Assembly: GCA_039187085.1 (NCBI GenBank)
Contig: JBCCZV010000003.1
Location: 6,720-70,719, forward strand
Length of the DNA: 64,000 bases
DNA from: Pseudomonadota bacterium
GTDB taxonomy: Bacteria > Pseudomonadota > Gammaproteobacteria > Enterobacterales > JBCCZV01
Direction of reading: 5' to 3'
Part shown: positions 5,788 through 44,817 of the stretch, piece by piece
Numbering within the stretch: the first letter of the stretch is position 1
How the letters are laid out: each line of letters opens with the position of its first letter
Program-made: the position numbers and the translations under genes
Notes under the pieces: generated by a model
Seen by the model: only the letters and a program-made list of their open reading frames with translations
What the model was told of the DNA's origin: nothing
The model's database searches: none

Positions 5788-7391
5788 TGGGTTTGTTGGT
5801 TTAAATGTTCTACTTGGCGCTCGAGTAATTGACGATAAGGCTCGTTCATAGCCTCAACGCGATAACTTTTTGTGGGCTCTGATTTTCCCTTTAATAACAC
5901 TTCACGGTAAGGTTTGGCAACGATTCGTGATTTAATGTCACCGTGTTGCAAAACTTTTTCGCTGATTATGGTTTGGTTGGGCTCTCCAATAGTGCATAAG
6001 CGTGATGCTAAGTTAACCGAATCACCAATAACGGTAAATTGCATTCTTTCATCACAACCCATTGCACCCGCTATCATTTCTCCAGTATGGATGCCCACTC
6101 GGAATGTTGCTTCAGGTAATTGTGTCGATTCTGGCATATTTTCATGATGAAGTTTGATTAATTCATTGAACAGGTAGGCAGCACACAAAGCGTGGAAGCA
6201 ATGTTCCTCATCTTGATGAGGAGCGCCAAAGGTTATCATGGCACCGTCACCTAGATATTTATCTACCACACCATTATAAAGCTTGGCTACTTTGTTAATC
6301 ATGGCAAAGTAGCGGTTTAACAAGTTTGCAACTGCTTGAGGAGCCATTTTTTCTGATAACGAAGTAAAGCCAACCATATCGATAAACATAACCGTAGCGA
6401 CAACAAGCTCACTTGGTGGTGTTTTTTCAGGCGCTGCTTGTAATTTGTTGATCACGGCCGGAGGTGCCAGTCTTGATAGGGACTTGGCTTTTAAAGAGTT
6501 GTCAGAGACATCATCCGCAAGTTGGTTCAGGGTGTGAATAATGTTGCCAAACTCATCATTACGATTCGCGGTAATTTTGTGATTATAATCATTGGCTACT
6601 TTGCTTGCCGCTAAGACTAAGTCGTCAACGGGTTGCGACATCCTTCTGCCCATCAGAAAGGCCAAGGTTACAGAAATAGCAAGCATTAAAAGGGTAGCAA
6701 ATCCTATTTTTTCTTCAATTTCATTGAGTGCTAACTCTAAGTGTGAGCGATCAATAACAATTTTTACCCAACCTACTAAAACGTTTTTTAAGCGAATTTG
6801 AGTCACAAAAGGAACTTGTTCGCTATGAGTCTGTTTTAAGGGGTTGGTTTGAGAAGCAGCATCAGCCATTTTTGTGCCATTGGTAGGAGTATCGGAGGGT
6901 TTTTCTTGGAGGTTGAGCGGGCTTTCCGTTGAAGATGTTAAATTTTTGTCAGTATCAGTCTCTTTCGGAGGTTGAGCTGAATTTTGGTTTTCTTCTGATG
7001 TATTGTCTTCAGTAATGGAAATTACAGCGGGACTGCTAGCCAATAGGGTTCCATCTTGAGCGTGGATAGCGACTTCAGAAACATTGGCATCTTCAGTCAT
7101 TCGATTAACGAGTACTTGCAAGCCGACTTGATCTTCGGCCAAGATCATCTCTGCCGCAGAATCAGCGGCTTGATTGGCTAAGCTGTAACCATAAATAGCC
7201 GCTTGTTTCTCCAGTTCATCACTGATGGTAGCACTGATAATAAACCATAAAGCACCTAAACTAACCGAAAGCAATATAGTGATTAACAAAGCAATCTTAT
7301 AAGCTAATGGAATTAATGGTTGAATGAAAGCTCGAGATTTTTCCTGTTCTGGCTGAGTGGTGATTTCAGCATTCGATGTTGTTGTGGTCAC
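5784..7391 (-). CDS. Membrane-bound class III nucleotide (adenylate) cyclase with HAMP linker
   Basis: 535 aa. Order of parts: TM (IALLITILLSVSLGALWFIISA), a roughly 170-aa periplasmic segment with a low-complexity Ser/Thr/Pro/Glu stretch, a second TM, a HAMP-like linker, then the cyclase domain. Cyclase motifs are MFIDMVGFTSLSE, DKYLGDGAMITFG and FTVIGDSVNLASRL. Confidence 0.85.
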   Translation of the reverse strand: MTTTTSNAEITTQPEQEKSRAFIQPLIPLAYKIALLITILLSVSLGALWFIISATISDELEKQAAIYGYSLANQAADSAAEMILAEDQVGLQVLVNRMTEDANVSEVAIHAQDGTLLASSPAVISITEDNTSEENQNSAQPPKETDTDKNLTSSTESPLNLQEKPSDTPTNGTKMADAASQTNPLKQTHSEQVPFVTQIRLKNVLVGWVKIVIDRSHLELALNEIEEKIGFATLLMLAISVTLAFLMGRRMSQPVDDLVLAASKVANDYNHKITANRNDEFGNIIHTLNQLADDVSDNSLKAKSLSRLAPPAVINKLQAAPEKTPPSELVVATVMFIDMVGFTSLSEKMAPQAVANLLNRYFAMINKVAKLYNGVVDKYLGDGAMITFGAPHQDEEHCFHALCAAYLFNELIKLHHENMPESTQLPEATFRVGIHTGEMIAGAMGCDERMQFTVIGDSVNLASRLCTIGEPNQTIISEKVLQHGDIKSRIVAKPYREVLLKGKSEPTKSYRVEAMNEPYRQLLERQVEHLNQQTQ

Positions 7392-7470: not shown

Positions 7471-8451
7471 ATGCTTCATGCATCCAAGAATATTCGAACT
7501 ATCTATGTGAGTATTTGTTCTTTTTGGGTGATAAAAAAGGAAAATCCTTTGATTCATAAGTTATATTTGTATATTTGTGTAAAAAATGTATCGCTAGAAC
7601 ACGAGCAAAATTTTGTTCAATGTTTAAAGCAGCATTCACCACTTTTATGGCAAGAATGGGAACAATCTTCATACAATATATCGAGCGCTCAAAATAAAAA
7701 AGTTAGATGTATTGAATCGCAGCACGTTCATCAAATCTGGAAAGAAACCTTACAAAAAATTGTGAAGTGGCTTGATTTTGATGCTTATGTCCTGAGCGAA
7801 GAACAAGCGCAGCTTATGCCAGAACTGTTGGTTTCAGACATGGACTCAACGCTTATTGAGTGGGAAGTGATTGATGAACTAGCTGTTATGGCTGGAGTTG
7901 GAAAACAAGTAGCTGACATTACTGAACAGGCTATGCAAGGCTTGCTCGATTTTGAAACAAGTTTGCGTCAGCGCGTAGCTTGTTTACAAGGGCTGCATGT
8001 TGAAGCAATTGCACGCCTTCAAAAGCAACTGCCATTATCACAAGGGGCAGAGAGCCTGCTGAAAGCATGTAAGCTACAGCGAGTCGAAACAGCGCTAGTA
8101 TCTGGGGGATTTATGCCGTTTGTTGAAGCGCTTCAACAGCGATTAGGTATTGACCATGTCGTTGCTAATCACCTGGAAACTCAAGAGTCGATTCTTACCG
8201 GACATGTACATGGACAGATTGTTGATGCTGATTTTAAAGCGGAATTTTTAAAGCTTTTAGCGACAAAAGCGCCTTCCGAAAGAAAAACGACGGTCGCTGT
8301 CGGTGACGGGGCTAACGATTTAGCTATGTTGCAAGCTGCAGATATAGGTTTTGCTTACCACGCAAAACCTATAGTGGCAAAAGCTGCTGATATTGCGATT
8401 GTCCATGGCGGCTTGGATTTGATTGCTTATCACTTCGGGTGGATTCGTTAA
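7471..8451 (+). CDS. serB: Phosphoserine phosphatase SerB
   Basis: HAD motifs are present: LLVSDMDSTLI (motif I), SGGF, and VAVGDGANDLAMLQAADIGFAYHAKP (motif III/IV). The start is uncertain. ATG 7471 is the longest; in-frame TTG 7549 is preceded by AAGGAAAA and gives (M)IHKLYLYI... Confidence 0.85.
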   Translation: MLHASKNIRTIYVSICSFWVIKKENPLIHKLYLYICVKNVSLEHEQNFVQCLKQHSPLLWQEWEQSSYNISSAQNKKVRCIESQHVHQIWKETLQKIVKWLDFDAYVLSEEQAQLMPELLVSDMDSTLIEWEVIDELAVMAGVGKQVADITEQAMQGLLDFETSLRQRVACLQGLHVEAIARLQKQLPLSQGAESLLKACKLQRVETALVSGGFMPFVEALQQRLGIDHVVANHLETQESILTGHVHGQIVDADFKAEFLKLLATKAPSERKTTVAVGDGANDLAMLQAADIGFAYHAKPIVAKAADIAIVHGGLDLIAYHFGWIR

Positions 8452-10526
8452 AGTTCCGACTCATTGAAATCAAAGTCTAACTCTCGGCCTGGCGCTTGTA
8501 AGTAGTCGCCTTGAATATATTTAACACCCAGTGGATAAAGTGCTGCAAGAGAACTGGCATCATCCACTTCAGGCACTATAGTAACTTTATCCTGTTCGTG
8601 AGCGGCTTCAATGAGTTGTTGAACTTTTTCATTAATCTCAGAATTTGAGAAAAGTTCGTTGGTAAAAGAGCCATCCAAGATCACATAGTCAATATTGATG
8701 TGACTAAATATTCCTTCTGGATTCAAACTGCTACCAAAACCACTCATGGCGATTTTAATGCCTGAAGATTGTAACTGTTCTGTAAAGGCTATCGCGCGTT
8801 TGAGATAAGCTGCAGCATCGGTTTCATGTAATCCTATAATTAAAGCGTCACTGGGTAGTCGCGCTTTCCTTAAATTGGATTGAATAAAAGAGGCTAAAGT
8901 ATCATCGATGATCGAGCCACCGGATAGCTGAACAAATAATTGCGTATTTTTTTGTTTTTTACGTTCACTATTTGCGGTTCTTAAGGCTTGAGCAATCACC
9001 CAGCGATCGAGTTTAGCCGTCAAGCCTGATTGGTTGGTAATGGGGAAAAGCTCTGTTGGTGGAACCAGTTCGCCTTCATCATTTTCCATGCGCAAATACA
9101 CTTGGTAGTATTCGGCAAGTTCGCCATGAAGTTTGGAAATGGGTTGATAAGTGAGAAACATTTTGTTCGTTTCTAAAGCTTCTTGAATTTTTTCTACCAA
9201 CTCTGCATTTGAAGACCCAGCCGCTTGTTCAAAAGCTGGATTGTAAACTCTCACGCCGTTGCCTTCTTTTTTATGGACTCGCAAAAAGGCTTGGTAGGCT
9301 TGCATTAATATTTTATCGCCACTTGGAGATTTTTCGGTAATAAAAGCGATACCAATGCTCAAAGTACAATGCAGAGTTCGACCCTGGATATCAATGAGTT
9401 GTTTAGAGAAAGCGACGACTAAATTGTTAGCAATATTTTTTGCTTCGTCTGGTTTCTGGTTTTTAAACAGAATACCAAAGCCTTCATCGCTCACTTTAGC
9501 AGTGATTTCTGATTCTATATTCTGTTCAAGAACGAAATTGGCCGTTTGCTTGATAAGTTCATCAGTACCGCTTATGCCATAATCACTGCGTACTTGATCG
9601 AATTGATCGGCTTCTATATAGAAAAATGCAAAGTTTTCGTTATTATTTGCTGCATGGCCTGAAGCGTGAACCAAGGATTCTAAGAGATGTTGGCGATTAT
9701 AAAAGCCAGTTAGTTGATCGACTGCTGAAAGTTCTTTTAGTTTTTGTTCAAGTTCAGCGCTATCGCCACCGGCTCGTATTAATACTTGTGTACATTCCTC
9801 GCCATCGTAAGTTGCAGGGCTTAGCGACAGCATAGCATTAAACGTACTCCCATCATCTTTTAAACCTTCAAACGAAAACTCATTAGTACTATTTTCTTTA
9901 AATTCTCGTAAAAACTGTTTAAAGGCTTCCTGGTAATCAGAAGAAATGATGTCCATTACCGGTATACAAGCCAATTCGTCCTGATCTTCGTAGCCAAATA
10001 ATTCAGCATAAGCATCATTGGTATAAATGTGCATCCCATCATGCACATAAGCTATAGCATCACGCGAACTTTGCAGTAACAAATTGCAGCGTATTTCAGC
10101 TTCTTTGAGTGCATGTTCCGCACGGCGTCGACACTTGCGGTGGTTAGCATTTTCAAGTTCATGCTGAATCATTAAACGAATGAGTTCTGGATCGGTAGCG
10201 GGAGCAACGCCATGAATTCCAAGTTTCATGGCTTCACGAATCAGTTCAATTGTGAAATCGTTAAGGATAAGGATAAAAGGTAAGTCTTTCCCATAGTGCT
10301 GCACGATTTTGAATGCCTGAAATGCGTTGAGGTCTTTTACCTTTGGTTTAGACAGATACAGATCCCAGTTTTGTCTTTCGAGAGCGACTTGCAGCGCCTC
10401 TTCACTTTCCACTTGCTCTGCTCTTACGGCATATCCAGAGTTACGTAAGATATTAATAGTTTTTTCAGCCTCATTAGAAGATGGGTCACTAATGAGAAGG
10501 TAAACTGTTTTGATTTTTGCAGCCAT
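8448..10526 (-). CDS. FimX-like REC-PAS-GGDEF-EAL protein with degenerate catalytic motifs (probable c-di-GMP sensor, not an enzyme)
   Basis: 692 aa. The N-terminal receiver-like domain lacks the acceptor Asp (WDLYLSKPK where DLVLLD is expected). A PAS-like region contains SRDAIAYVHDGMHIYTND. The GGDEF position reads SDEGF. In the EAL domain, EAL reads QVY, the DDFG position reads SGFGSS, and the K of KxD reads L (VILDGSF), while YQPI, DRW and QG are kept. Confidence 0.75.
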   Translation of the reverse strand: MAAKIKTVYLLISDPSSNEAEKTINILRNSGYAVRAEQVESEEALQVALERQNWDLYLSKPKVKDLNAFQAFKIVQHYGKDLPFILILNDFTIELIREAMKLGIHGVAPATDPELIRLMIQHELENANHRKCRRRAEHALKEAEIRCNLLLQSSRDAIAYVHDGMHIYTNDAYAELFGYEDQDELACIPVMDIISSDYQEAFKQFLREFKENSTNEFSFEGLKDDGSTFNAMLSLSPATYDGEECTQVLIRAGGDSAELEQKLKELSAVDQLTGFYNRQHLLESLVHASGHAANNNENFAFFYIEADQFDQVRSDYGISGTDELIKQTANFVLEQNIESEITAKVSDEGFGILFKNQKPDEAKNIANNLVVAFSKQLIDIQGRTLHCTLSIGIAFITEKSPSGDKILMQAYQAFLRVHKKEGNGVRVYNPAFEQAAGSSNAELVEKIQEALETNKMFLTYQPISKLHGELAEYYQVYLRMENDEGELVPPTELFPITNQSGLTAKLDRWVIAQALRTANSERKKQKNTQLFVQLSGGSIIDDTLASFIQSNLRKARLPSDALIIGLHETDAAAYLKRAIAFTEQLQSSGIKIAMSGFGSSLNPEGIFSHINIDYVILDGSFTNELFSNSEINEKVQQLIEAAHEQDKVTIVPEVDDASSLAALYPLGVKYIQGDYLQAPGRELDFDFNESEL

Positions 10527-10684: not shown

Positions 10685-12607
10685 TTAAATTAAATCCCAG
10701 ACATTATCAAAGTCATCTAAATCCGTATCTTGCCCTAAAGTACTTTTCTCTACAGTGGGTTTATTTTGTCCTGTATTGTTTTTCGAATCTTGTGATAGAG
10801 ATTCAAATTCAAATTGTTTATAGCTGTGTGTATTGTTATTGAGCTTAACTAACCTGACTATCTCATCCCTCTCGTCGTCCACGAAGCGAACTTTGTGCTG
10901 AACCCTATAAGGAACGGGCGGGGTAATGAGTGTTGCTGCCTGTTTTAATCCTTTGATTTCTGGTACTAGCAAGCTACGTTGAAAGGCTTGGGTGTTCATT
11001 TTGCTGTCTCTGACTTGGGAACGAACGGGAATGGCTGTTGGTGCAATTAATTGTAAACCGATTTGCGCAATGCCTTGATTATTGCGTTTTATCCACCGTA
11101 CAACTGAAATACTCCAGTAAGAAGAATCATTTTCTTCTCGCAAAATGCCAACGATTTCTCCCGTTTGTGTTTGCGCGGGAATATTAGTTGGTAATCGCAA
11201 ACAATAACCTCCAGGGCTCATATTCACAATGGAGGCTTCAATAGTTTCGTAGGAAACATCATCATTATTCGAAGTGAAGGAATTCGGCGCCGATATTGAA
11301 TAGAGACTTTCTTGCTCATCACTTGGGCTACCAGCGTGATTGTTCACTTTATTCCAGACATCTTCGGGTGGTCTAGAACCACTGTCTCGAGCCGCAAATG
11401 TGGCAGGCTTAGGTTGAGTCGTCTCTGGCTGTTCTGGTGAAGTCTGGCCTTGGTTGAGAGATGAGTTTGGCCCCCCACTTCTTTCCTCATCGCTATATAA
11501 TTCGTTATCAAAAAATTCGGTATTATTTTCGAGAATAGATTGCGTCAAAACATGATGAGTAGCGGCTAATCCAACGGCTATTTGCACATCTGCTTGCGAT
11601 GTCATCCTAGAAAAAGAGCGGTGCGATAATTTCCCAAGAGAGCTAATTAAGTGCCGTAATATGATGGGATTAAAAGCATAATTACCATAACGTGTAAATT
11701 GTGAGCTATCTTCGGGGACTCTTCTGAGGTGCTCATCCAGATAATCCACTAGATTCTGTGTATTTACTTTTAAAAAGGTTTTGGCAGGTACTTCGGTATC
11801 TTTTTGCGCTTGTTTAATAGCAGCATGGTGGATCGGTGGTGAATCTTGTCCAAGGTCAATGACATATTTGTTGTCTACGACTTGGGTTTCTTCCAAGTAA
11901 ATCATTGATATGAGGTCGTCGAGTGCAGCAAATACCAAATCAATATCTTTTTGACGCAACTGATAAGGGTTAGACATGGCTAACAAGACAATCCGCATAT
12001 ACAGGTTTTCAAGAGTTAATTTTCGCGTTTTTTCAGCGTCGATATTAATTTTGTTTTGGTGGTAATTGTGGTGACGTGCGTAGTTGTACAGCATATGAAT
12101 TTCGAGCCATACGCCTTTAGGTGGTTGGGTATAAAGTTGGTAGCAGCGTATGATAACTTTGCACATATAATCCATGGCGAGATACATGCCGGGTATTAAT
12201 GTTTTTTTATCTAATAAAAAAGATGAACGACCGAGAATAGACTCAATAACTGATTTGTAACCCAAGGACATTTCCATGTCCATGGCTTGAGCTAATGCTG
12301 CAATTTTTTTTTGTTTAGCATTAATAGCGATAGATCGCCCTAGATAATGCTTGCGCAAAGCTTGAGAAATATAATTTGCAGATTTTTCAATGACTAAAAG
12401 GCTTTTAAAGCGCTGATCGTAGCTAATAATAGAACGGTTTGCTTCTGATAAAACACTATAAATAGATTTTGATATTTCACCCACGTTAGCCATAGGTAAA
12501 GAACTAATCCATTTTTGAATGGTTTTAGGTTCAAATTTTACTACAGGTGTTTTATTTTTTGACTGCTCGCGTAGAGACAGCCCTATACAGCCTTTACTTA
12601 TTTGCAC
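10685..12607 (-). CDS. Large conserved-hypothetical protein with a C-terminal PilZ-like beta-barrel segment lacking RxxxR
   Basis: 640 aa. The C-terminal roughly 110 aa read IEASIVNMSPGGYCLRLP...GEIVGILRE...WSISVVRWIKR...GLQLI. This matches the (D/N)xSxxG half of PilZ, with no RxxxR upstream. A Ser/Pro/Gln-rich linker precedes it, and the N-terminal roughly 400 aa is unassigned. It is co-directional with and immediately downstream of the FimX-like gene. Confidence 0.55.
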   Translation of the reverse strand: MQISKGCIGLSLREQSKNKTPVVKFEPKTIQKWISSLPMANVGEISKSIYSVLSEANRSIISYDQRFKSLLVIEKSANYISQALRKHYLGRSIAINAKQKKIAALAQAMDMEMSLGYKSVIESILGRSSFLLDKKTLIPGMYLAMDYMCKVIIRCYQLYTQPPKGVWLEIHMLYNYARHHNYHQNKINIDAEKTRKLTLENLYMRIVLLAMSNPYQLRQKDIDLVFAALDDLISMIYLEETQVVDNKYVIDLGQDSPPIHHAAIKQAQKDTEVPAKTFLKVNTQNLVDYLDEHLRRVPEDSSQFTRYGNYAFNPIILRHLISSLGKLSHRSFSRMTSQADVQIAVGLAATHHVLTQSILENNTEFFDNELYSDEERSGGPNSSLNQGQTSPEQPETTQPKPATFAARDSGSRPPEDVWNKVNNHAGSPSDEQESLYSISAPNSFTSNNDDVSYETIEASIVNMSPGGYCLRLPTNIPAQTQTGEIVGILREENDSSYWSISVVRWIKRNNQGIAQIGLQLIAPTAIPVRSQVRDSKMNTQAFQRSLLVPEIKGLKQAATLITPPVPYRVQHKVRFVDDERDEIVRLVKLNNNTHSYKQFEFESLSQDSKNNTGQNKPTVEKSTLGQDTDLDDFDNVWDLI

Positions 12608-16533: not shown

Positions 16534-16682
16534 TAACCTTACCTCTTTAGAATAACATTTGCTGCGCATTGTAGGGTATTCGCTAGCAATTGTCAGTAGA
16601 CTTTATCGGTAATTGCTATAGTAAAAAAGATATTAAGCACATCAGCTTTATTGAAAATAACCTAGCGAGTTTACTCTTTACT

Positions 16683-17534
16683 ATGACAAAGTTATTGGGG
16701 CTTTTGACCGTCTTTTTAGCGGTATTTGGTGGATATTGGCTGGCTTCAGGTAAATTGTTGGCGCTTTGGCAACCTTTCGAAATCATCATCATTGTAGGTG
16801 CAGCGATGGGGGCTTTTGTCATTGCCAATCCTCTCAGTGTGGTCAAGGATACATTTAAAGGTGTCGGCAGTGTGTTTCGAGGCAGTGAATACGGGCGAAA
16901 CCTTTATCTTGATCTCTTATTGTTATTGTTTCGTTTATTTGGCAAGGTGCGGCGAGAAGGTTTGATAGCGCTAGAGCGGGATATTGATGATCCAAAAAGT
17001 AGTAAATTATTTCGTAAGCATATTTACATTATGCGTAATAAGGAGGCGTTGGAGTTTATTACTGATTATATGCGATTGGTCATCATTGGCGATATGTCAG
17101 CCTACGAACTTGAAAGCTTGATGGAAACAGAAATTGATAATATGCATAAGGCTAAATTAGCGCCAGTTGATGCTCTTTACAAAAGCGCTGACGCTTTGCC
17201 TGGCTTTGGTATTGTCGCTGCAGTTTTAGGTATAGTGATCACTATGCAAGCTTTGGGAGGGGAACCAGAAGAATTAGGCTATCATATTGCGGCTGCTCTC
17301 GTTGGGACTTTTATTGGTATTTTTTTAGCATATGGCGTTGTTGGTCCTTTAGCATCAGCGCTAGAACAACAAGTCAGTAATGACGTAAAATTTTTCGAGT
17401 GTATAAAATCTGCAATTGTCGCATCCATTAACGGTGTTCCTCCGCAAGTTGCTGTAGAATTCGCACGTAAATCCATGAGTGTAAAATATCGTCCAGGTTT
17501 CAATGAATTAGAAAAGCGGATTCGAAGTACATGA
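16683..17534 (+). CDS. motA: Flagellar motor stator protein MotA
   Basis: From ATG 16683, MTKLLGLLTVFLAVFGGYWLASGKLLALWQPFEIIIIVGAAMGAFVIANP aligns with the E. coli MotA N-terminus. It has four TM helices, a charged cytoplasmic loop (RREGLIALERDIDDP) and the conserved prolines (ALPGFGIV, YGVVGPLA). Confidence 0.88.
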   Translation: MTKLLGLLTVFLAVFGGYWLASGKLLALWQPFEIIIIVGAAMGAFVIANPLSVVKDTFKGVGSVFRGSEYGRNLYLDLLLLLFRLFGKVRREGLIALERDIDDPKSSKLFRKHIYIMRNKEALEFITDYMRLVIIGDMSAYELESLMETEIDNMHKAKLAPVDALYKSADALPGFGIVAAVLGIVITMQALGGEPEELGYHIAAALVGTFIGIFLAYGVVGPLASALEQQVSNDVKFFECIKSAIVASINGVPPQVAVEFARKSMSVKYRPGFNELEKRIRST

Positions 17535-18469
17535 ATGAAGAACCAGATACACACACGGATGACGAAACAGACGAAGAAGGATTGAGAGGGCTTTTAGGTG
17601 AAGAGCCGCCTCCGCGACCTATTATTATTCGGCGTAAATCGAGAGAGAACATTAAATCGCATGGAGGGGCGTGGAAAGTTGCTTATGCTGATTTTGCAAC
17701 AGCAATGATGGCATTTTTTCTTTTAATGTGGATTATTGGTTCAACAACTGAAGAACAAAAAGATGCAATTGCGCACTATTTTGAACAACCTGGCGCAGCA
17801 CCTATTGGGGCGGGTGGCGCTAATGCTAGCATCATTGAACTTAAAAACCCTCTACTCTCACGAAAAGAGGCAGAAGTGATTGATCCTACGCAACAACCTG
17901 AAAAGCCTATTGACGATGACGATTTGCAATTAATGGCTGAACGTCTGGAGCTGCAACGCCTTGCTTCATTGCAACTTGAGCTAGAAGAGCGTGTTAATTC
18001 AGACAAAGCCTTCGAAAGATTCAAAGAGCAAATCCACATTGGTGTGGTACCTGATGGGCTGCGAATTGAAGTCTTTGATAAAAAACATCGCCCAATGTTC
18101 GACAGTGGTGGTCACGAACCCAAGTTTTACACGCGAGCTTTGTTTTTCGCTTTAGCTAAGTTGATCAATCAAGTGCCTAATCGCGTCTCAATTACGGGGC
18201 ATACTGATGCTTTACCCTTTGTTGATAAAGAAAATTATTCAAATTGGGAGTTGTCTTCAGAAAGAGCCAATGCTGCTAGAAGAGCGCTTGAACGTGGCGG
18301 ACTGGATCCAGAAAAAATTGCAAAAGTGGAAGGTTTTGGAGCTTCTGCCCTTTACGATAAGGCTAACCCCACCAATCCAATTAATCGGCGCATAGCCATC
18401 ATTGTTCTAAAGAAATCCGCTATGGATTCGATTGATCAAAATATTTCTCATGAATGGGATATGCGTTGA
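17531..18469 (+). CDS. motB: Flagellar motor stator protein MotB (OmpA-like peptidoglycan-binding C-terminus)
   Basis: Plug/TM segment GGAWKVAYADFATAMMAFFLLMW contains the channel Asp. The C-terminus is OmpA-like (ITGHTDALPF...NWELSSERANAARRAL...NRRIAIIV). Its start overlaps the motA stop (ATGA). Confidence 0.88.
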   Translation: MNEEPDTHTDDETDEEGLRGLLGEEPPPRPIIIRRKSRENIKSHGGAWKVAYADFATAMMAFFLLMWIIGSTTEEQKDAIAHYFEQPGAAPIGAGGANASIIELKNPLLSRKEAEVIDPTQQPEKPIDDDDLQLMAERLELQRLASLQLELEERVNSDKAFERFKEQIHIGVVPDGLRIEVFDKKHRPMFDSGGHEPKFYTRALFFALAKLINQVPNRVSITGHTDALPFVDKENYSNWELSSERANAARRALERGGLDPEKIAKVEGFGASALYDKANPTNPINRRIAIIVLKKSAMDSIDQNISHEWDMR

Positions 18470-20152: not shown

Positions 20153-20701
20153 ATGAGTATTAGCGAAGATAATTTGGTTTGGATCGATATGGAGATGTCA
20201 GGGCTGGATCCTGAAACCGATCGTATTTTAGAAATGGCAACTATCATAACCGATAGCGAGCTTAACGTTATTGCAGAAGGTCCTGTATTTGCCATTTACC
20301 AATCCGAAGAAGTGCTTCGAAATATGGATGAATGGAATACTAGCCACCATACTCGTTCAGGACTTGTCGAACGTGTGAAGGAAAGTCGAATTGACGAGGC
20401 AGAAGCGGAAAAGCTAACGCTCGAGTTTATATCGAGTTATGTTGCGGCAGGCCAATCTCCTTTGTGTGGTAACAGTATTTTTCAAGATCGTCGCTTTATT
20501 TCCCGCTACATGAAGTCATTGGATAAATTTCTACACTATCGTTTAATCGACGTGAGTACTGTCAAAGAGTTAGCGCGACGCTGGAATAACGAAGTATGTG
20601 ACAGTGTAAAGAAAGCTGGTTCTCACAAAGCGTTAGATGACATACGTGAATCTATTGCAGAATTACAACACTACCATAAAACATTTTTTAAATTGCCTTA
20701 A
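20153..20701 (+). CDS. orn: Oligoribonuclease
   Basis: 182 aa with the DEDDh motifs [31 protein letters not shown] and [14 protein letters not shown]. Confidence 0.96.
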
Positions 20702-21171
20702 GTCACTCTGATAGCACCAAGTAGCAGGGTAATTTTGCATTAAATTGTAATTATATTTAACATGTCTGAATATCAATAAGTTGTAAACCTTTTTTCTTCT
20801 AATTCTTTCCTCATTTTCTTGAAAATTTCCATTGTTCGATGAGGAAAGATAACCTCATATAAACGAGCATTAACTGTTTCGTGTTTTAAACGCATAGTTC
20901 AAGAAAATACTGAAATAATTTTAAGCTCGAGGCAGCACGATTCTCTATAGCTTATTGAAATTTTTTCACTTCTTATCTCAAGCGTTTTTTATTCTCCATA
21001 TATTCTTTCTTGCTTTTTGTAGGAAATCTAGCCAGCTATTGTTTCATCGTCTAGACTTTTAGAGCAATAAATTAAGTTATAGAAAAGCTCGACACTTTAA
21101 TGAATTATCCTCGCTAAGTTCGTTGGGGTTGTTGGTTCAATGTTGAGAAATTCAGACAGTTAGGATTGCCT

Positions 21172-21870
21172 ATGAAAAGATTAATTGCCTACTGCTTGCT
21201 TGCTTCCTTTTTCTCATTAGGCGTAGTTAAAGCAGACAAGCTTTATGTCTTTGTTCCTTCAGATATGAGGGCCAAAGTTTTACAAGATAAAATTACCAGT
21301 TTATGTAAGGATGCTGAAGTAACGGTGTTTGGTCGAGTTAAAGATTTTACTAAACGAGTCAAAAGCGAACCGCCTCATGCCATTATTGCACTTTCTCCTG
21401 TCATCGAATCCAATCCCTCTTTTAAAAAATTGCTTCAAGGTGTTAATGATGAGGGCACCATTAAAGAACCTTATTTACTAGTAGCGGTAGATCAAGCTGT
21501 TGATGCTGCAAGCTTAGGCAACAAAAAAATTGGTGTTGTGGACATTCTGGGTCGGAAAAGCATGAAGAAATATTTAGCGGATAATTTAAGCCCTGATGTG
21601 AAAATGAAAAGCGTAACAAAAGTTGAAGACCTCTTACCCTTACTCACTTTCAAAGCTGTAGATGCAATATTTGTTTCAGAGTCCATCTTCGAAAAACTGA
21701 AAGAAAAAACCGAATTGAATTTGCAAGTTACAAAGCTTGAAGCAACGGTTGGCTTAGTGTCCACGGCCCTTGCCAATGAACAAGCAAGGGCTAAATTCAC
21801 CGAATGTGTTAACGCTTTCTCCGCAGACATTAATGCAGCAATGGGAGTGGAAAAATGGAAAAATTTATAA
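21172..21870 (+). CDS. Secreted periplasmic binding-protein-like protein (type-2 PBP / PhnD-like impression), first gene of the sensor module
   Basis: ATG 21172 sits 6 nt behind AGGA; the ORF track starts at TTG 21166. The signal peptide is MKRLIAYCLLASFFSLGVVKA/DK. The pattern KKIGVVDILGRKSMKKYL...AVDAIFVSESIF resembles solute-binding proteins. The fold assignment is by eye only. Confidence 0.5.
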   Translation: MKRLIAYCLLASFFSLGVVKADKLYVFVPSDMRAKVLQDKITSLCKDAEVTVFGRVKDFTKRVKSEPPHAIIALSPVIESNPSFKKLLQGVNDEGTIKEPYLLVAVDQAVDAASLGNKKIGVVDILGRKSMKKYLADNLSPDVKMKSVTKVEDLLPLLTFKAVDAIFVSESIFEKLKEKTELNLQVTKLEATVGLVSTALANEQARAKFTECVNAFSADINAAMGVEKWKNL

Positions 21871-22874
21871 TTCGCTCGAGAATGTTGAGAATTCGTTTAA
21901 TGAGTTCGGTTTTTATGAGCAAATCGACTTGGCTGTTTTTGGCCACGTTAATGACTTTCTCATTCAATTCAAGAGCTGACACTATTTTACTTGTCCATGA
22001 CAAAGGTGAAGCTTTCTCCGATGTGAAAAACGGTTTCATAGACGAAATCGATGGAGAATTTACTATTGAATCACTTGAAGTTACCAAATCTACATCGAGT
22101 GATGCAATCTCCAAATCAACAAAAAAAATTAATCCAAAACTCATCGTTCTCGCTGGGAATACTGCTGTAAAATTTTACGCTGATTATCAAAAAAGTCAGG
22201 GTTCTGACAATATTCCGGCTTCATTGGTGGTTGCTGCTTTGTTTGCAGACAAGCTCGTCGGTAACTTAAAAAATGCTACAGCTATACGTTATGAAATACC
22301 AGCAGTGACCAGTATGGTTAACTTAAGGTCTATTTCAAGTGGTTCGATGCAAAAAATTGGTGTGATTTATCGTGAGTGGATGAAAGATTTAATTAAGAAA
22401 AACAAAGATTTTCTTGCTCAAGAAGGTTTTCAGTTGGTTACTGTCAGTCTTGATAACAAAACCAGTAAGCCAGAAAAAGATATCAAAAAAGCAATTAAAA
22501 ATTTGAAAAAAGAGAAAATTGATGCTCTATGGATCATCAATGATAACACTTTACTCAACGGTAATACTTTAAAGAAAGCTTGGATACCAGGGTTAAAAAA
22601 CACCAAGTTCTCAGTTGTAGTTAATGCGGAAACATTAATATCAACAAAATTTAAATTTGGGAATTTTGCAGTTTATCCTGACCATTACGGGCTAGGTATT
22701 CAGGTCGCCAATGCTGTTTTTGATATTGCCGATTCAGACTGGTCGATTGATGATCGAGATATTGAAGAGCCTTTATCTGTCAAAAAAGCTTTGAATGTTA
22801 AATTGACTGAGAAAAAAGGTATTGAGCTTAAAAGTACCGCTTTAAGTACTGTGGATAAAGTGGTGAAAAAATAA
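21855..22874 (+). CDS. Secreted ABC_sub_bind-like periplasmic binding protein, second gene of the sensor module
   Basis: A GGAG SD lies 7 nt before ATG 21855, and the gene overlaps the previous one by 16 nt. The hydrophobic segment TWLFLATLMTFSFNSRA/DT looks like a signal peptide. IGVIYREW...QEGFQLVTVSLDN...KIDALWIINDNTLL resembles the PF04392-type binding-protein family (from memory). Confidence 0.55.
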   Translation: MEKFIIRSRMLRIRLMSSVFMSKSTWLFLATLMTFSFNSRADTILLVHDKGEAFSDVKNGFIDEIDGEFTIESLEVTKSTSSDAISKSTKKINPKLIVLAGNTAVKFYADYQKSQGSDNIPASLVVAALFADKLVGNLKNATAIRYEIPAVTSMVNLRSISSGSMQKIGVIYREWMKDLIKKNKDFLAQEGFQLVTVSLDNKTSKPEKDIKKAIKNLKKEKIDALWIINDNTLLNGNTLKKAWIPGLKNTKFSVVVNAETLISTKFKFGNFAVYPDHYGLGIQVANAVFDIADSDWSIDDRDIEEPLSVKKALNVKLTEKKGIELKSTALSTVDKVVKK

Positions 22875-22928
22875 TTGTACTGATAAAAATCTTTTTTCGT
22901 TAACTTTTAGTAGGTAAATACAAATCTC

Positions 22929-25811
22929 ATGGACAAAGCGTTCAGAAGCATAAGAGCTAAACTCATCAGTAATGGAAGTGCCATTCTTATTGGCACTTTC
23001 TTATTGGTAATTTCTATTACTGTGTATATGAATATTCAGACATCTGAAAAACAATTAACAGCTACCGAAGAGAATATTAGGACTTCGCTGTTAGCTAAAG
23101 GCCAAACGCTTATTGCGAACAACAGTCAAGCTTTAAAAGGAATGGTAGGTGACAACGCGTTTGGCGCAGTTCAACAATTGGTTGCTTCTACGGTTCGCGA
23201 TGATCCTGATATACGTTACGGCATTTTCATGGATGTGGAAATGTCTCCTTGGGTTATGGCCGATGGTGAAAATACTACTGGTGAAATTACTAACCGTATT
23301 GAACTTGATGATGAACAAAGTGTTTGGGTGTCCGAGCTTACGGAGGTTTCTTTCAAACGTTTGGATCGGTTAGGTGAAGTGATTTATGAATTTGCCGCCC
23401 CTGTTATTGATGATGATGAAATTTTAGGTTTTATTCGTTACGGATTTACAACGGCTAGTATGCAGAGATCTTTGGGAGTAGCACGTGAAGAAGCACAACA
23501 AGCTTTAATCTATACCATTAGTATTGTAGGTGCCGTGGGCCTTTTAGCTGTCATCGCAGGTATGTTTTTTAACACCAGTATGGCAACGCGTATTACACGG
23601 CCTTTACAATCTTTGACCGCTGCAGCGGGGACCATAGCGCAAGGTGATTACAGTAAAAGTATTACACGAGAGTCGAATGATGAAATTGGTCGTTTAGCAG
23701 AAAACTTTAATACTATGCGACTCACTATTCAGAAAAAGATGCAAGATCTTTCTGAGTTAAACAAAGTTGGGGAAGAACTGGCCGGAATTACTGTCAAAGA
23801 TAAAGCTTTAGAAGCTTCTATGGTTGCTATGCAATCACATACGGGAGTGAGAGAAGGATCTGTTTATCTTTATAACGAACATGGTCATTTTGAAATGCAA
23901 ATTTCTTATCCACTTAAAATCACTCATGAATCACCTAAAACATTTCGAGAAGGTGAAGGTGTACTTGGTATTGCTGCTCGTGAAAAAAAAGTTATTTTTG
24001 TTCCTGATACTTCTCAAGAAAATCAGTTTATTCAAGTTCGTGATGAAGAAGGTAAAGCACTGCTATGTGTTCCCATGATTGATAATGATATTGTTATTGG
24101 AGTGATGAATTTTTCGGGAGCTATTGACCAAGTAAACTTTTCTGATAGTGATTATGAATATGCTTCTTCTGTGGCACGACTTTTAGTGATTACACTGAAA
24201 AATATTCGTATGCGTGAAGAAATTGAAGAGCATAACCGTAACTTGGAAGTGAAAGTACAAAAAAGAACGGCAGCTTTACAAGAAAAAACCAATGACATTG
24301 TTAGCATGATGGAAAACATGCACCAGGGTTTATTCACTGTTATTGAGGGCAGTGTTATTCATCCTGAATATGCAGCATATCTTGAAGAAATTTTTAATAC
24401 TAAACATATTGCTGGCCGCAGTATTATGGATTTGGTTTTTACCCACACTGATTTAGGTGCAGATGCATTAAACCAAGTAGAAACAGCGCTTTCGGTGTTA
24501 ATTGGTGCCGATGAAATGATGTATGATTTTAATTCACACTTATTAGTCACGGAGCTTACAAAAACTTTTGAAAATGGTGACAAAAAGATTTTAGAGCTTG
24601 ATTGGGACCCTATTATTTTCGAAGATGAAATTCAAAAAATTATGGTGACAGTAAGAGATGTTACTGAGTTAAAAGCTTTAGAAAAAGAATCTGAAGCTCA
24701 AAAACGCGAGTTGGAAATCATTGGTCAAATATTATCACTGGATGAAGAGAAATTTATTCAATTCCTCAAAACTGCAGACAGTTTTGTTAATGAAAACAGG
24801 GAGTTGATAAACACTAATAGCGACAAAAATAATGATGTGATTGCAACTCTATTTAGGAATATGCATACAATAAAAGGTAATGCAAGAACTTATGATTTTA
24901 AATTTGTGACTGATTCAGTTCATGAAGCTGAGAATACCTACGATGAGCTTCGAAAAGATGATACGAAGCTTTGGGATAAGTCAGTCTTGTTACAAGAATT
25001 AGATGTAGTCGAAGAAAACATTTTGGTATACAAACGTGTTGGTGAAGAAAAACTGGGAAGGTCTGTTGCATCCGGTGGCAAAACGAGTTTAAACCAACAA
25101 ACCGTGGATCGAATTATCAATGGTTTTGCCAGTCTGGACCTTGCCAATGTGCCAGAACCTACGAAAAAACAATTGCAATTAGCGATTGCGCAAGTTAGTG
25201 CTCTTGATACAGAAGAATTTGAATCCGTTATTGGAAATATTTTGAAAGCTGTGCCATCAATAGCTGAAGAACTGGGTAAGCCTGCGCCTAATATCAATAT
25301 TGATTTTGAACATTATCGTATCCGTAAAAATGCAACCTCAATAGTGGGTGATGTTTTTTCTCATATTATTCGTAATTCATTGGATCATGGTATCGAGCCT
25401 GGAGATGAGCGAGTCAATAAAGGTAAGAAAGAAAATGGTGTAATTTCAGTGAGTGCATGGCAAGAAAATAATGCTTTGAAGATTGCCGTGCGTGATGATG
25501 GAAGAGGTTTAGGAATTGCTAGATTAAAGAAAAAAGGTATTGAAAAAGGTCTTTTTGCGGCAAGTGACTCACCACAGATGTCAGATATCGTTGGCTTGGT
25601 TTTTGAATCAGGCATGTCAACAGCAGAAAAAGTCACAGGTATTTCAGGCCGAGGTGTTGGCATGGAAGCTGTAAAACAATTTATGGAACAAAATGGAGGC
25701 AGTATTGAGCTGATTGTTGACGAAAATAGCTCAATTAATGAGGAGTTTGCACCTTTTCAAACTGTACTCACATTACCTCAGTCTATGTATGTGGCCCTTG
25801 AAGCCGCTTAA
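22929..25811 (+). CDS. Transmembrane HAMP-GAF sensor fused to a CheA-type Hpt(P1)-P3-P4 histidine kinase core
   Basis: 960 aa. Order: TM1 (res about 17-35), a roughly 160-aa periplasmic segment, TM2 (IYTISIVGAVGLLAVIAGMFF), HAMP (EIGRLAENFNTM), then a GAF-like domain (GVLGIAAREKKVIFVPD...VIGVMNF). The Hpt region LFRNMHTIKGNARTYDF...VHEAENTYDELR aligns with CheA P1, and QQTVDRIINGFASL looks P3-like. The CheA-type ATPase motifs are HIIRNSLDHGIE, VRDDGRGL and GISGRGVGMEAVKQFMEQNGGSIEL. There is no HisKA H-box and no CheW-like domain. Confidence 0.8.
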   Translation: MDKAFRSIRAKLISNGSAILIGTFLLVISITVYMNIQTSEKQLTATEENIRTSLLAKGQTLIANNSQALKGMVGDNAFGAVQQLVASTVRDDPDIRYGIFMDVEMSPWVMADGENTTGEITNRIELDDEQSVWVSELTEVSFKRLDRLGEVIYEFAAPVIDDDEILGFIRYGFTTASMQRSLGVAREEAQQALIYTISIVGAVGLLAVIAGMFFNTSMATRITRPLQSLTAAAGTIAQGDYSKSITRESNDEIGRLAENFNTMRLTIQKKMQDLSELNKVGEELAGITVKDKALEASMVAMQSHTGVREGSVYLYNEHGHFEMQISYPLKITHESPKTFREGEGVLGIAAREKKVIFVPDTSQENQFIQVRDEEGKALLCVPMIDNDIVIGVMNFSGAIDQVNFSDSDYEYASSVARLLVITLKNIRMREEIEEHNRNLEVKVQKRTAALQEKTNDIVSMMENMHQGLFTVIEGSVIHPEYAAYLEEIFNTKHIAGRSIMDLVFTHTDLGADALNQVETALSVLIGADEMMYDFNSHLLVTELTKTFENGDKKILELDWDPIIFEDEIQKIMVTVRDVTELKALEKESEAQKRELEIIGQILSLDEEKFIQFLKTADSFVNENRELINTNSDKNNDVIATLFRNMHTIKGNARTYDFKFVTDSVHEAENTYDELRKDDTKLWDKSVLLQELDVVEENILVYKRVGEEKLGRSVASGGKTSLNQQTVDRIINGFASLDLANVPEPTKKQLQLAIAQVSALDTEEFESVIGNILKAVPSIAEELGKPAPNINIDFEHYRIRKNATSIVGDVFSHIIRNSLDHGIEPGDERVNKGKKENGVISVSAWQENNALKIAVRDDGRGLGIARLKKKGIEKGLFAASDSPQMSDIVGLVFESGMSTAEKVTGISGRGVGMEAVKQFMEQNGGSIELIVDENSSINEEFAPFQTVLTLPQSMYVALEAA

Positions 25812-26006
25812 ATATCGCTGTTGTTCTTTCATGCTCATGTGAAGTTAGGTGTAAGCGTCTTTCAAACAGAAAAAGGTTTTTATTGATCTCATTTAATGGT
25901 GGATATACAACCTCTTAAGGTCCAATTAATGCAAGCCTTACTATGATCCCAAAAAATAGGGCTTTCGTAATCTTTCTTAATTTATTCTAATTAGGATTCG
26001 ATTCCA

Positions 26007-27398
26007 ATGACTCACCCCCAGAGTGTGAACCTTGTCTGGTTTCGCAACGATCTACGCGTAAAAGATAATTCTGCACTTGCAGCCGCTTTAACAGAAAAGA
26101 AACCTATCATAGCAGCTTTCTTCATTTGTGAACCTCAGTGGCAATTGCACGGATGGGGTCGCCTCAAAACACAATTTGTGATGGCACACGCGCATAAACT
26201 CTCTGAATCTTTAAAAGAAAAAGGTATTGGGTTGATTGTTCGCTCTGTGAAAAGTTTTGCATTGTGTGGTCAGGAGCTACTAAAAATTTGTGAAAATTAT
26301 AACTGTGTAAAAATTTTTGCTAATCGTGAATATGAGTGGGATGAACGTAGTCGCGACATTCAGGTTACTCAGCAATTCAAAGGCACGACTATTACTACGC
26401 ATTGGTTTGATGATGGATTGGTGGTTGCACCCGGTGAAATTTTAACTAAGTCGGGTGATTATTTTAAAAAATTTACTCCTTTTAAACGTGCCTGGTTCGA
26501 AAAAGCTAACATTCACGCAATCAAACCCATTTCTCAAAATAGAAGTATTTATGATACTAGTGCGCAAAGCGAACTGGATATTTTAAGCAATTCAAATTAT
26601 TCACTGGAACAATGGCCTATTGGCGAAAAAGCTGCACAGAAAATTTTATCGCATTTTATTAAAAATAAAATTAAACAGTATGATATCCAGAGAGATTTAC
26701 CTTACGAAGAAGGAACGAGCCGAATCTCTCCTTATCTGAGTGCTGGTATCTTGGGTATTCGCGAGATTTTTTGGCAAATATTGCGACATCATAAAATCAT
26801 CAATGAGGGAATTGAAGTTTGGGTCAGCGAATTAATATGGCGTGAGTTTTATAAACACATTGTTTTTGGTTTTCCACATGTTTGTAAAAATCGACCTTTT
26901 GACTTAACCACTGAAGCCGTGCCTTGGCGTCATGCACCTGAAGAATATGAAGCATGGTGTAAGGGGCAAACAGGCTATCCTATTGTTGATGCAGGTATGC
27001 GCCAACTTAACCAAGAAGGATGGATGCATAATCGTTTAAGAATGATTTGCGCCAGTTTTCTAGCAAAGCATCTACTGATTGATTGGCGGTTGGGTGAAGC
27101 TTACTTTGCAAAGCAATTAATTGATTTTGATTTTGCAGCAAATAATGGGGGGTGGCAGTGGAGTGCATCAACCGGTACGGATGCGATGCCTTATTTTAGA
27201 ATATTTAATCCTATTTTACAGGGCAAAAAGTTTGATAAAGAAGCTGAGTATATTAAACATTACGTTCCAGAATTACAGCCATTGAAAGCTTCTGATATTT
27301 ATAAAATTCATTTGCATCCAAAAAATAACTATTTTCATCCAATTGTTCAACTAGAGGAAGGCAGAGATCGTTGTCTTCTCGCATTTAAACAGAGGTAA
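26007..27398 (+). CDS. phrB: Deoxyribodipyrimidine photolyase (CPD class I)
   Basis: 463 aa with LVWFRNDLRVKDNSAL, TSRISPYLSAG, GYPIVDAGMRQLNQEGWMHNRLRM and DFDFAANNGGWQW. Confidence 0.92.
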   Translation: MTHPQSVNLVWFRNDLRVKDNSALAAALTEKKPIIAAFFICEPQWQLHGWGRLKTQFVMAHAHKLSESLKEKGIGLIVRSVKSFALCGQELLKICENYNCVKIFANREYEWDERSRDIQVTQQFKGTTITTHWFDDGLVVAPGEILTKSGDYFKKFTPFKRAWFEKANIHAIKPISQNRSIYDTSAQSELDILSNSNYSLEQWPIGEKAAQKILSHFIKNKIKQYDIQRDLPYEEGTSRISPYLSAGILGIREIFWQILRHHKIINEGIEVWVSELIWREFYKHIVFGFPHVCKNRPFDLTTEAVPWRHAPEEYEAWCKGQTGYPIVDAGMRQLNQEGWMHNRLRMICASFLAKHLLIDWRLGEAYFAKQLIDFDFAANNGGWQWSASTGTDAMPYFRIFNPILQGKKFDKEAEYIKHYVPELQPLKASDIYKIHLHPKNNYFHPIVQLEEGRDRCLLAFKQR

Positions 27399-44067: not shown

Positions 44068-44817
44068 GTGGCAAGTGAAGAGTTTTTATATGGTCTACAT
44101 TCGGTAGAATTGGCAATAAAGCGTGATAAAAAACGGATTAAACGAGTTTATCTCCTTCATGCTTCAAAAAATGCCAAACTCCAAAAAATTATTCAACTAT
44201 GCAAAGCACATCATATTGCCTTTGAAATGGTAGACAAACTGTTTTTTACACAATATCAATTAGAAAAAGTTAATCATCAAGGTGTTACTGCTCTCGTCGA
44301 AGCAAAAACAATGGGGTCAGAAGCCGATCTTAAGCGTTTATTAGAAAACTTATCGCATGAACCTTTGATTTTACTGCTTGATGGCGTCACTGACCCTCAT
44401 AATCTTGGTGCTTGCTTAAGAACAGCAAATGCTGCGGGTGTGGATGCACTTGTCGTTCCTAAAGATCGTTCTGTAGGCCTTAATGCTACAGCTTGTAAAG
44501 TTGCCAGCGGAGCAGCAGATGTAACCCCTGTATTTCAAGTAACGAATTTGAATCGTACCATTGATTATTTGAAGTCACTGAATATCTGGCTATATGGTAC
44601 TGCTGGTGAAGTTAAAGATACGCTTTACACCACCACTTTTACTGGTGGTGTCGCTCTAGTTATGGGATCAGAAGGCGAGGGCCTTAGGCAAAGTACGCGT
44701 TCTCATTGCGACTTTCTTATTAAAATACCTATGTTAGGTCAAGTCTCAAGTCTCAATGTCTCTGTAGCCACTGGTGTAGTGCTTTTCGAGGTAGTACGGC
44801 AAAGAGTAGCTCAATGA
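44068..44817 (+). CDS. rlmB: 23S rRNA (guanosine2251-2'-O)-methyltransferase
   Basis: It uses a GTG start behind AGGAG. SpoU/TrmH motifs are LLLDGVTDPHNLGACLRTANAAG, ALVMGSEGEGLR and SLNVSVATG. It follows rnr, as in E. coli. Confidence 0.9.
   Translation: MASEEFLYGLHSVELAIKRDKKRIKRVYLLHASKNAKLQKIIQLCKAHHIAFEMVDKLFFTQYQLEKVNHQGVTALVEAKTMGSEADLKRLLENLSHEPLILLLDGVTDPHNLGACLRTANAAGVDALVVPKDRSVGLNATACKVASGAADVTPVFQVTNLNRTIDYLKSLNIWLYGTAGEVKDTLYTTTFTGGVALVMGSEGEGLRQSTRSHCDFLIKIPMLGQVSSLNVSVATGVVLFEVVRQRVAQ

Follow-up and report, generated by a model that had tools for sequence, protein, structure and literature searches.

CheA, the standard example of a kinase without a sensor of its own, is controlled via CheW, its P5 domain and receptor arrays. 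Periplasmic binding proteins can mediate indirect ligand sensing in such systems, as the maltose-binding protein does with Tar and the ribose- and galactose-binding proteins do with Trg in Escherichia coli, and as AibA and AibB do with TlpB in Helicobacter pylori. The binding-protein-dependent three-component systems LuxP/LuxQ, TorT/TorS and AioX/AioS/AioR are built on classical HisKA/DHp transmitters. Here we describe a module of three open reading frames (ORF1 to ORF3) in a stretch of 64,000 nucleotides (nt) of contig JBCCZV010000003.1 (GCA_039187085.1; positions 6,720-70,719), which is referred to as the window and to whose positions all coordinates refer. The module encodes a membrane sensor kinase, whose core is of the CheA type (P1-P3-P4), together with two secreted binding proteins. 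We consider it likely that the module is a binding-protein-dependent two-component sensor in which the CheA-type core replaces the DHp kinase. As far as we found, it is the binding-protein-pair branch of a large, unnamed and uncharacterised family of sensor-fused CheA-type kinases without P5. The genes and the domains of ORF3 are listed below, with the supporting evidence in brackets.

21172..21870, + strand: ORF1, secreted class II (PhnD/PtxB/AioX-like) binding protein, 232 residues (AlphaFold and Foldseek)
21855..22874, + strand: ORF2, secreted divergent ABC_sub_bind (PF04392) binding protein, 339 residues (profile of the homologue family)
22929..25811, + strand: ORF3, membrane sensor kinase of 960 residues, CheA-type P1-P3-P4 without P2 and P5 (Pfam, NCBIfam, PDB profiles, AlphaFold, Foldseek)
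23037..23501, + strand: periplasmic Cache/PAS-like sensor domain of ORF3, residues ~37-191 (AlphaFold; weak Pfam sCache_3_2)
23580..23732, + strand: HAMP domain, residues 218-268 (Pfam PF00672, E=1e-13)
23802..24194, + strand: GAF domain, residues 292-422 (Pfam PF01590, E=4e-12; profile matches to GAF structures)
24324..24659, + strand: PAS-like alpha/beta domain, residues 466-577 (AlphaFold, predicted local distance difference test score (pLDDT) ~90; no Pfam match)
24744..25052, + strand: CheA P1-type Hpt four-helix bundle, residues 606-708 (Pfam, PDB profiles, AlphaFold)
24864-24866, + strand: codon of the predicted phospho-acceptor H646 (alignment with CheA P1)
25095..25202, + strand: short P3-like two-helix hairpin, residues 723-758 (family profile, AlphaFold, Foldseek)
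25218..25796, + strand: CheA P4-type ATP-binding domain, residues 764-956 (phmmer, profile, Foldseek)

ORF3 combines a membrane sensor with a CheA-type core

In the AlphaFold model of ORF3 (mean pLDDT 85) the domains follow each other in the order first transmembrane segment (TM1), Cache/PAS-like domain, TM2, HAMP, GAF, helix, PAS-like domain, Hpt, hairpin and P4. Pfam recognises Hpt at residues 612-685 (27.6 bits, cut-off 24.6) and HATPase_c at residues 809-928. The P1 domain can be aligned with that of CheA across the H-x-x-K-G box, and in the alignment with PDB sequences H646, K649, H665 and E668 correspond to H48, K51, H67 and E70 of E. coli CheA P1. Conservation was assessed on 48 full-length homologues of ORF3 with 38-62% identity, in all of which H646, T647, K649, G650, N651, R653, T654, H665 and E668 are invariant. 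The same is true of the ATP-binding motifs: ORF3 has the N box HIIRNSLDHGIE, the G1 box DDGRG and the G2 box SGRGVG, and across the 48 homologues H812..R815-N816..D819-H820-G821-x-E823 of the N box, DDGxG of the G1 box and SGRGVG of the G2 box are unchanged.

The C-terminus of ORF3 matches CheA P4 structures with ~100 bits in phmmer and with 155-190 bits when the family profile is used, and Foldseek superimposes its P4 domain on 1I58 and 1I5B with TM-scores on the target of 0.82-0.86. Its best NCBIfam matches are CheA models, at scores far under their whole-protein cut-offs, and in the NCBIfam and PDB sequence searches the catalytic domain groups with CheA and not with EnvZ. Between P1 and P4 the family profile is colinear with the P3 domain of 4XIV, 1B3Q and 6S1K, with weak similarity, and AlphaFold predicts a hairpin of helices 723-734 and 743-758, that is 12 and 16 residues compared with the canonical 26-28. 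The Foldseek comparison with 4XIV, which comprises CheA P3 and P4, yields a TM-score on the target of 0.62 at 30% identity.

No HisKA-type or CheW match of Pfam was obtained for ORF3, and the sole invariant histidine in a helical bundle is H646, which lies in an Hpt fold. Since the protein stops at residue 960, only 4 residues past P4, it has no P5, and all family members end at the same point; P2 is missing as well, because a linker of 14 residues is all that joins P1 to the P3-like hairpin. From this we conclude that ORF3 is a membrane sensor whose transmitter is of the CheA type (P1-P3-P4) and lacks P2, P5 and DHp. A preliminary description of this DNA, made from its letters, had reached the same view of the Hpt domain, the ATP-binding domain and the missing DHp/HisKA, P2 and P5 domains, which Pfam, PDB profiles, AlphaFold and Foldseek now bear out. 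Its P3-like stretch corresponds to the short predicted hairpin, which is colinear with CheA P3 but weakly similar to it and gives no H-kinase_dim match. The tentative link that it drew to Legionella Lpl0330 did not hold up. A 2026 preprint describes Lpl0330 as having an atypical HisKA domain with the phospho-histidine His-210, whereas the histidine of ORF3 lies in an Hpt domain, and a kinship, compared by description only, is unlikely.

This architecture lies apart from the CheA proteins surveyed so far. Among the 13,673 CheAs of a 2023 survey, P5/CheW was present in 100% and H-kinase_dim always occurred together with CheW (PMC10782961). In the same work CheA is described as having no sensor domain, and P5 is treated as a core domain (PMC10782961). 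The ORF3 family is therefore outside the current definition of CheA, since it lacks P5 and carries sensor domains of its own.

Concerning these sensor domains, TM1 (~12-36) and TM2 (~192-214), whose limits were read from the sequence and not from a transmembrane predictor, enclose a periplasmic part of ~155 residues, in which AlphaFold places a long helix ahead of an alpha/beta domain (78-174). Pfam sCache_3_2 matches it weakly (E=0.07). The HAMP and GAF domains follow TM2, as had been read before with a periplasmic segment of ~160 residues, and the GAF domain is a possible second, cytoplasmic input. A 55-residue signalling helix (408-463) runs ahead of the PAS-like domain in the AlphaFold model. 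This conserved PAS-like domain had been overlooked in the preliminary description; an HMM (hidden Markov model) of the region matches 96 of the 101 family kinases, which makes it a hallmark of the family.

A large family of sensor-fused kinases and its cassette

Full-length homologues of ORF3 with 40-62% identity were found in marine Gammaproteobacteria including Aliikangiella, Pleionea and Marinibactrum, the closest being encoded at locus L004 (62%). A scan of species-representative genomes revealed relatives at 594 or more loci, in at least 594 species genomes, most of them similar to ORF3 over residues ~420-955 only, i.e. over the PAS-like, Hpt, P3 and P4 part. Among these relatives are proteins of Paraburkholderia, Burkholderia (including Burkholderia cenocepacia), Pandoraea, Ralstonia, Cupriavidus, Rhodoferax, Aquabacterium, Cellvibrio and Oleiphilaceae. 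With the PAS-like plus Hpt segment as query, 536 clusters at 50% identity were retrieved at E<=1e-30 and 1669 at E<=1e-10. The N-terminal sensors vary widely and include 4HB_MCP with HAMP, 4HB_MCP with GAF, Reg_prop/Y_Y_Y, a Ser/Thr kinase with AAA and GAF, and Cache. Annotated members on (secondary) replicons of Burkholderiaceae bear generic names only, and the full-text literature searched, which left most subscription journals outside, contained no name or description of a family of sensor-fused or P5-less CheA proteins. The same PAS-like plus Hpt query gives 27 separate matches in P0276 (4858 residues) and 12 in P0396 (2330 residues), two giant proteins that appear to contain long arrays of this module.

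The kinase genes of the family are frequently accompanied by a cassette of small genes. These were counted with HMMs derived from neighbouring proteins, considering genes within 6 kb of the 62 kinases that have at least 5 kb of sequence on both sides. A membrane-anchored chemoreceptor-like protein of ~245 residues (mini-MCP) was found near 46 of the 62 kinases, as was a CheX-like protein of ~180 residues, and a second CheX-like protein of ~325 residues, in which an extra N-terminal domain of ~170 residues precedes CheX, near 28. A small receiver is located near 47 kinases, its cassette form being a 121-residue CheY-like receiver (REC) protein. The mini-MCP, the 180-residue CheX-like protein and a receiver occur together at 44 kinases (examples are L005:6987-9978, L002:5000-7851 and L087:7650-9306), and none of the cassette genes is nearby in 13, among them the window. 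Beside the proteobacterial kinases with Pfam-annotated gene tables we found no CheW, CheR or CheB, most loci not having been scanned for these. Several genomes encode paralogous or tandem kinases and at most one cassette locus (Pleionea L002 versus L014; L073 and L079), and therefore trans-acting partners are normal in the family. At L073, L079, L026 and L065, two to three tandem family kinases of 1170-2005 residues each stand with no cassette nearby, as would fit a single receiver shared by many sensors.

The mini-MCP keeps the canonical hairpin tip of chemoreceptors, and it could be this protein that runs the kinase by binding to it directly, e.g. at the PAS-like domain, the binding proteins then being accessory or modulatory. 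Its frequency in the family (46 of 62 kinases) and the universal presence of a PAS-like domain without Pfam match would fit such a role. However, a mini-MCP is missing from the vicinity of the kinase in the window and at several other loci, and the highly variable sensors of the kinases themselves (4HB_MCP, Reg_prop, Ser/Thr kinase with GAF, Cache) are a signature of direct input, which leaves this explanation with a small but real chance.

Receiver proteins and the missing partner of ORF3

Eleven loci encode a kinase with an ORF3-type periplasmic domain, namely the window, Aliikangiella, Pleionea, L004, Marinibactrum, L017, L093, L094 and three loci of Fibrobacterota/Chitinivibrio, in which the remainder of the kinase is highly diverged. 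A receiver adjoins the kinase in nine of them. The type of receiver differs: Pleionea, Marinibactrum and L093 have the 121-residue CheY-like REC of the cassette, L004 and L017 a different stand-alone REC of 136-146 residues directly downstream of the kinase, and the Fibrobacterota-type loci a REC of 126 residues. In L094, a relative from Tara Oceans, a REC-DUF3369-HD-GYP protein is encoded directly after the kinase (L094:12035-13561), which suggests that hydrolysis of cyclic di-GMP is one output of the ORF3-type branch.

In the window, no receiver gene lies in or beside the module, as had been noted before; the 195 nt past ORF3 are empty, and the only REC in the 64 kb belongs to a Reg_prop/Y_Y_Y hybrid kinase at 44811-48932. 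We rejected this REC as a dedicated partner, as the hybrid kinase is unrelated and 19 kb away, though some cross-phosphorylation may occur. Neither the window ORFs scanned with Pfam, which were not all of its ORFs, nor the gene tables included a CheW or MCP gene. The preliminary description had called the output partner of the kinase unknown, which applies to this locus, but relatives usually have a linked receiver, often with mini-MCP, CheX-like and CheY genes. The partner-less state is thus a trait of this locus and not of the family, and either the receiver for ORF3 is encoded outside the 64-kb window and acts in trans, or ORF3 is an orphan.

If it is an orphan, the copy in the window might be a stranded remnant that has lost its receiver or cassette and is inactive, decaying or kept for a role other than that of a kinase. 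The lack of REC, mini-MCP and CheX-like genes would be explained in this way, as would the absence of the REC gene that lies directly downstream of the kinase in the closest homologue L004 (62% identity); the slightly low G+C (guanine plus cytosine) content of the module points in the same direction. Yet the three ORFs are intact and of full length with all invariant catalytic residues kept, 13 of the 62 family kinases likewise have no cassette nearby, partners acting in trans are normal (Pleionea L002 versus L014), and 64 kb are merely the visible part of the genome. A stranded remnant is, in our view, quite unlikely.

Co-occurrence of the binding-protein pair with the ORF3-type periplasmic domain

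ORF1 has a signal-peptide-like N-terminus (MKRLIAYCLLASFFSLGVVKA), as read from the sequence, and its AlphaFold model (pLDDT 95) shows a two-lobed class II periplasmic binding-protein fold. Structure prediction was needed here, because neither a Pfam match of ORF1 nor a significant match of its profile to PDB sequences was obtained; the best Pfam match was that of the Marinibactrum orthologue to PF12974 (E=0.005). Foldseek matches the model to 7T1M, PtxB, AioX, ArrX, XAC2383 and the second Venus flytrap domain of BvgS (VFT2) with E values of 1e-8 to 1e-11, and PtxB, AioX, ArrX and 7T1M reach a probability of 1.0 with TM-scores on the query of 0.65-0.73. One of the closest structures, 7T1M, is a sterol-binding protein, and several of the matches are signalling receptors that serve membrane sensors and are not components of transport. 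ORF1 contains an invariant motif, VTKVEDLLPLLTF, and its family comprises 119 homologues.

ORF2 likewise starts with a segment that reads like a signal peptide. Twelve of 33 ORF2 homologues carry precomputed PF04392 annotations, an almost complete alignment with 3LFT is obtained for the family profile (E=5e-6), and NCBIfam TrpX gives a weak match to ORF2 itself (25 bits with a cut-off of 390, E=7e-6). ORF2 can be regarded as a divergent relative of ABC_sub_bind, below the curated threshold. The family profile also matches the "single-domain SBPs" of Rhodothermus, whose genes have been reported near chemoreceptor genes (PMC10805632). Both proteins had been taken for periplasmic solute-binding proteins in the preliminary description, and the class II fold of ORF1 and the family assignment of ORF2 agree with this.

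An HMM of ORF3 residues 40-185 matches only kinases whose locus carries both ORF1-like and ORF2-like genes. The pair adjoins the kinase in all 11 loci with an ORF3-type periplasmic domain and in none of the other 79 (Fisher's exact p=2e-14, with loci taken as independent and phylogeny uncorrected). The two genes nearly always overlap, by 4-16 nt, and the position of the pair is far from constant: it is found upstream and co-directional, divergent, downstream, between two kinases or after the receiver. This co-occurrence of pair and domain across rearrangements, in Gammaproteobacteria, Fibrobacterota and Chitinivibrio alike, is the pattern expected if ORF1 and ORF2 act physically with the periplasmic domain and not as parts of a transporter. 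No permease or ATPase gene of an ATP-binding cassette (ABC) transporter is linked to the pair in the 11 loci, the sole ABC genes in the flanks being the unrelated pst-phoU phosphate operon of Pleionea, and the 64-kb window contains neither such a gene nor an ABC ATPase signature, as had been stated before. The earlier proposal of two dedicated binding proteins that are no transporter parts is thereby strengthened. That they are instead ordinary ABC substrate-binding proteins, the kinase sensing otherwise via its Cache, GAF or PAS domain, is very improbable, since the pair follows the periplasmic domain exactly across phyla and rearrangements and no permease or ATPase genes accompany it, even though both fold families are dominated by transporter components and three domains of ORF3 itself could bind a ligand.

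Two further observations were made at these loci. TonB-dependent receptor genes flank the module in three of the 11 (L001:11110-13401, L005:14800-17535 and L094:1662-6848), co-directionally in two, which hints at a substrate imported via TonB as the possible ligand; none was present among the window ORFs checked. In two Fibrobacterota loci (L090:4881-7004 and L092:4881-7004) a second, soluble kinase of 707 residues with the domains CheX-Hpt-HATPase_c is encoded directly upstream of the pair, with a canonical CheA-CheW-REC hybrid and a CheW gene nearby.

Proposed mechanism

The preliminary description had proposed a sensor that is fused directly to a CheA-type core and gated by two binding proteins, with no partner identified, and Pfam, PDB, AlphaFold and Foldseek analyses together with the genomic linkage agree with it. 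A HisKA domain, a catalytic domain of another type than CheA, linked ABC genes and, in the literature covered, a named or characterised family were all looked for, and none of them was found. In the module, ORF1 and/or ORF2 would bind a ligand in the periplasm and dock on the Cache-like domain of an ORF3 dimer. The signal may then be transmitted via TM2, HAMP, GAF and the long signalling helix to the PAS-like domain, with the GAF domain possibly adding a cytoplasmic input. This conformational signal would set the access of P4 to H646 on the P1 bundle, and phosphorylated P1 would donate its phosphate to a stand-alone CheY-like receiver. The receiver gene of the relatives lies beside the kinase, usually with the mini-chemoreceptor and CheX-like putative phosphatases; here it would be located outside the window.

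Several points weigh against this binding-protein-dependent sensor with a CheA-type core. That ORF3 autophosphorylates, that the binding proteins dock on it and that they carry a ligand are inferences. The P3 hairpin is short and weakly CheA-like, and Pfam H-kinase_dim (PF02895) was not detected in ORF3 at E<=1, nor did ORF2 on its own give a Pfam match at this threshold. Searches of the window by tblastn with the family proteins returned no partner REC, mini-MCP or CheX-like gene, so that this copy could be an orphan. The mini-MCP with its canonical hairpin tip is not accounted for by this scheme, and the family may still use a receptor-like coupling. The Fisher test, as mentioned, treats related loci as independent.

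On a wider scale, the family might represent an unrecognised chemosensory-type class present in at least 594 species, which would combine a core free of P5 and CheW with swappable sensors and with mini-MCP, CheX-like and CheY proteins. In the window it would be equipped with a heteromeric pair of binding proteins that possibly reports a TonB-imported substrate. We hold this wider view tentatively and give it somewhat less than an even chance.

Organization of the locus and other genes of the window

The three genes are co-directional, with an overlap of 16 nt between ORF1 and ORF2 (21855-21870) and a gap of 54 nt between ORF2 and ORF3 (22875-22928), exactly as given in the preliminary description. 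The start codon of ORF1, placed there at TTG 21166, is more likely the ATG at 21172, 6 nt downstream, because of an AGGA Shine-Dalgarno sequence, the alignments with homologues and the 232-residue NCBI protein. A GGAG precedes the ATG of ORF2 at 21855, and the overlap of the two reading frames suggests that ORF1 and ORF2 are translationally coupled. A scan of 20600-26100 for promoters and terminators was uninformative: promoter-like sites were rarer than in a shuffled control, and no terminator was found downstream of ORF3. The module is located between an oligoribonuclease-like gene (orn) and a photolyase gene (gaps 20701-21172 and 25811-26007). It appears to move as a unit, since the modules of relatives are found in wholly different neighbourhoods (e.g. 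L004 and L001).

The G+C content of the module is 37.0% compared with 40.1% for the window, which is ~2 standard deviations under windows of the same size and corresponds to the 6th percentile. The module had been called AT-rich on the basis of spot counts; its G+C content is indeed lower, but marginally so, and the spot counts overstated the contrast. A foreign origin, which had been considered compatible with the composition, does not follow from so weak a signal, as the sensor kinase gene at 44811-48932 is equally low in G+C.

This gene, on the - strand, encodes a hybrid kinase of 1373 residues that combines Reg_prop beta-propellers and Y_Y_Y with HisKA, HATPase_c and REC. In other genomes (L049) a sensor of this Reg_prop/Y_Y_Y type is joined to a CheA-type core, an instance of sensor swapping between kinase classes. 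Upstream, the window further encodes a HAMP-adenylate/guanylate cyclase (5784-7391, - strand), a PAS-GGDEF-EAL protein (8448-10526, - strand) and MotA/MotB-like proteins (16590-18469). For two proteins, of 639 residues (10685-12607, - strand) and 364 residues (4690-5787, - strand), no Pfam match was obtained at E<=1e-5.

Implications

With P1, P3 and P4 kept and fused sensors replacing the coupling to arrays, the family indicates that a CheA core can be driven by ordinary HAMP/GAF/PAS transmembrane signalling. This bears on the mechanism that regulates the access of P1 to P4, and the family offers a simpler, array-free model of CheA catalysis. It also adds a signalling pathway, undescribed as far as we found, to Burkholderiaceae of clinical and agricultural relevance. 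One sensor domain strictly paired with two different binding proteins makes a testable case of binding-protein-gated signalling.

Comparison with known systems

Other departures from the five-domain plan of CheA are known. CheA3 and CheA4 of Rhodobacter sphaeroides are split or atypical CheAs (PMC10782961). Unlike the ORF3 family they keep P5, act in arrays and have no sensor domain. Compared with the CheA proteins of E. coli and Thermotoga maritima (1B3Q, 4XIV, 1I58, 6S1K), ORF3 shares the His/Lys/His/Glu set of P1, a hairpin in the position of P3, and a P4 domain with ~30% identity and identical N, G1 and G2 boxes. The substrate class is likely the same, a single-domain CheY-like receiver, and CheX-like putative phosphatases are encoded beside relatives of ORF3. 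Unlike CheA, ORF3 has no P5 or P2 and no CheW gene found nearby, and it is an integral membrane protein with periplasmic, HAMP, GAF and PAS-like domains of its own.

The use of a class II fold for signalling is shared with XAC2383-XAC2382 of Xanthomonas citri (5UB7) and with the Venus flytrap domain of BvgS (3MPK), but the output of XAC2382 is a diguanylate cyclase and BvgS is a fused classical hybrid kinase, neither of them being CheA-type. Closer in organisation are LuxP/LuxQ, TorT/TorS and AioX/AioS, which also have a dedicated binding-protein gene beside the sensor kinase gene, no cognate ABC transporter and a presumed docking of the binding protein, and the fold of ORF1 is closest to the PhnD/PtxB/AioX/ArrX group. 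Unlike these systems, the module uses a CheA-type P1-P3-P4 transmitter and two kinds of binding protein, class II and ABC_sub_bind, which always occur together.

As with Tar and the maltose-binding protein, Trg and TlpB, a loaded binding protein would contact a periplasmic sensor and ultimately control a CheA-type kinase and CheY. In those systems receptor and kinase are separate proteins, joined within arrays through CheW and P5, and their binding proteins serve transporters as well, whereas in the module receptor and kinase form one polypeptide and the binding proteins appear to be dedicated to signalling.

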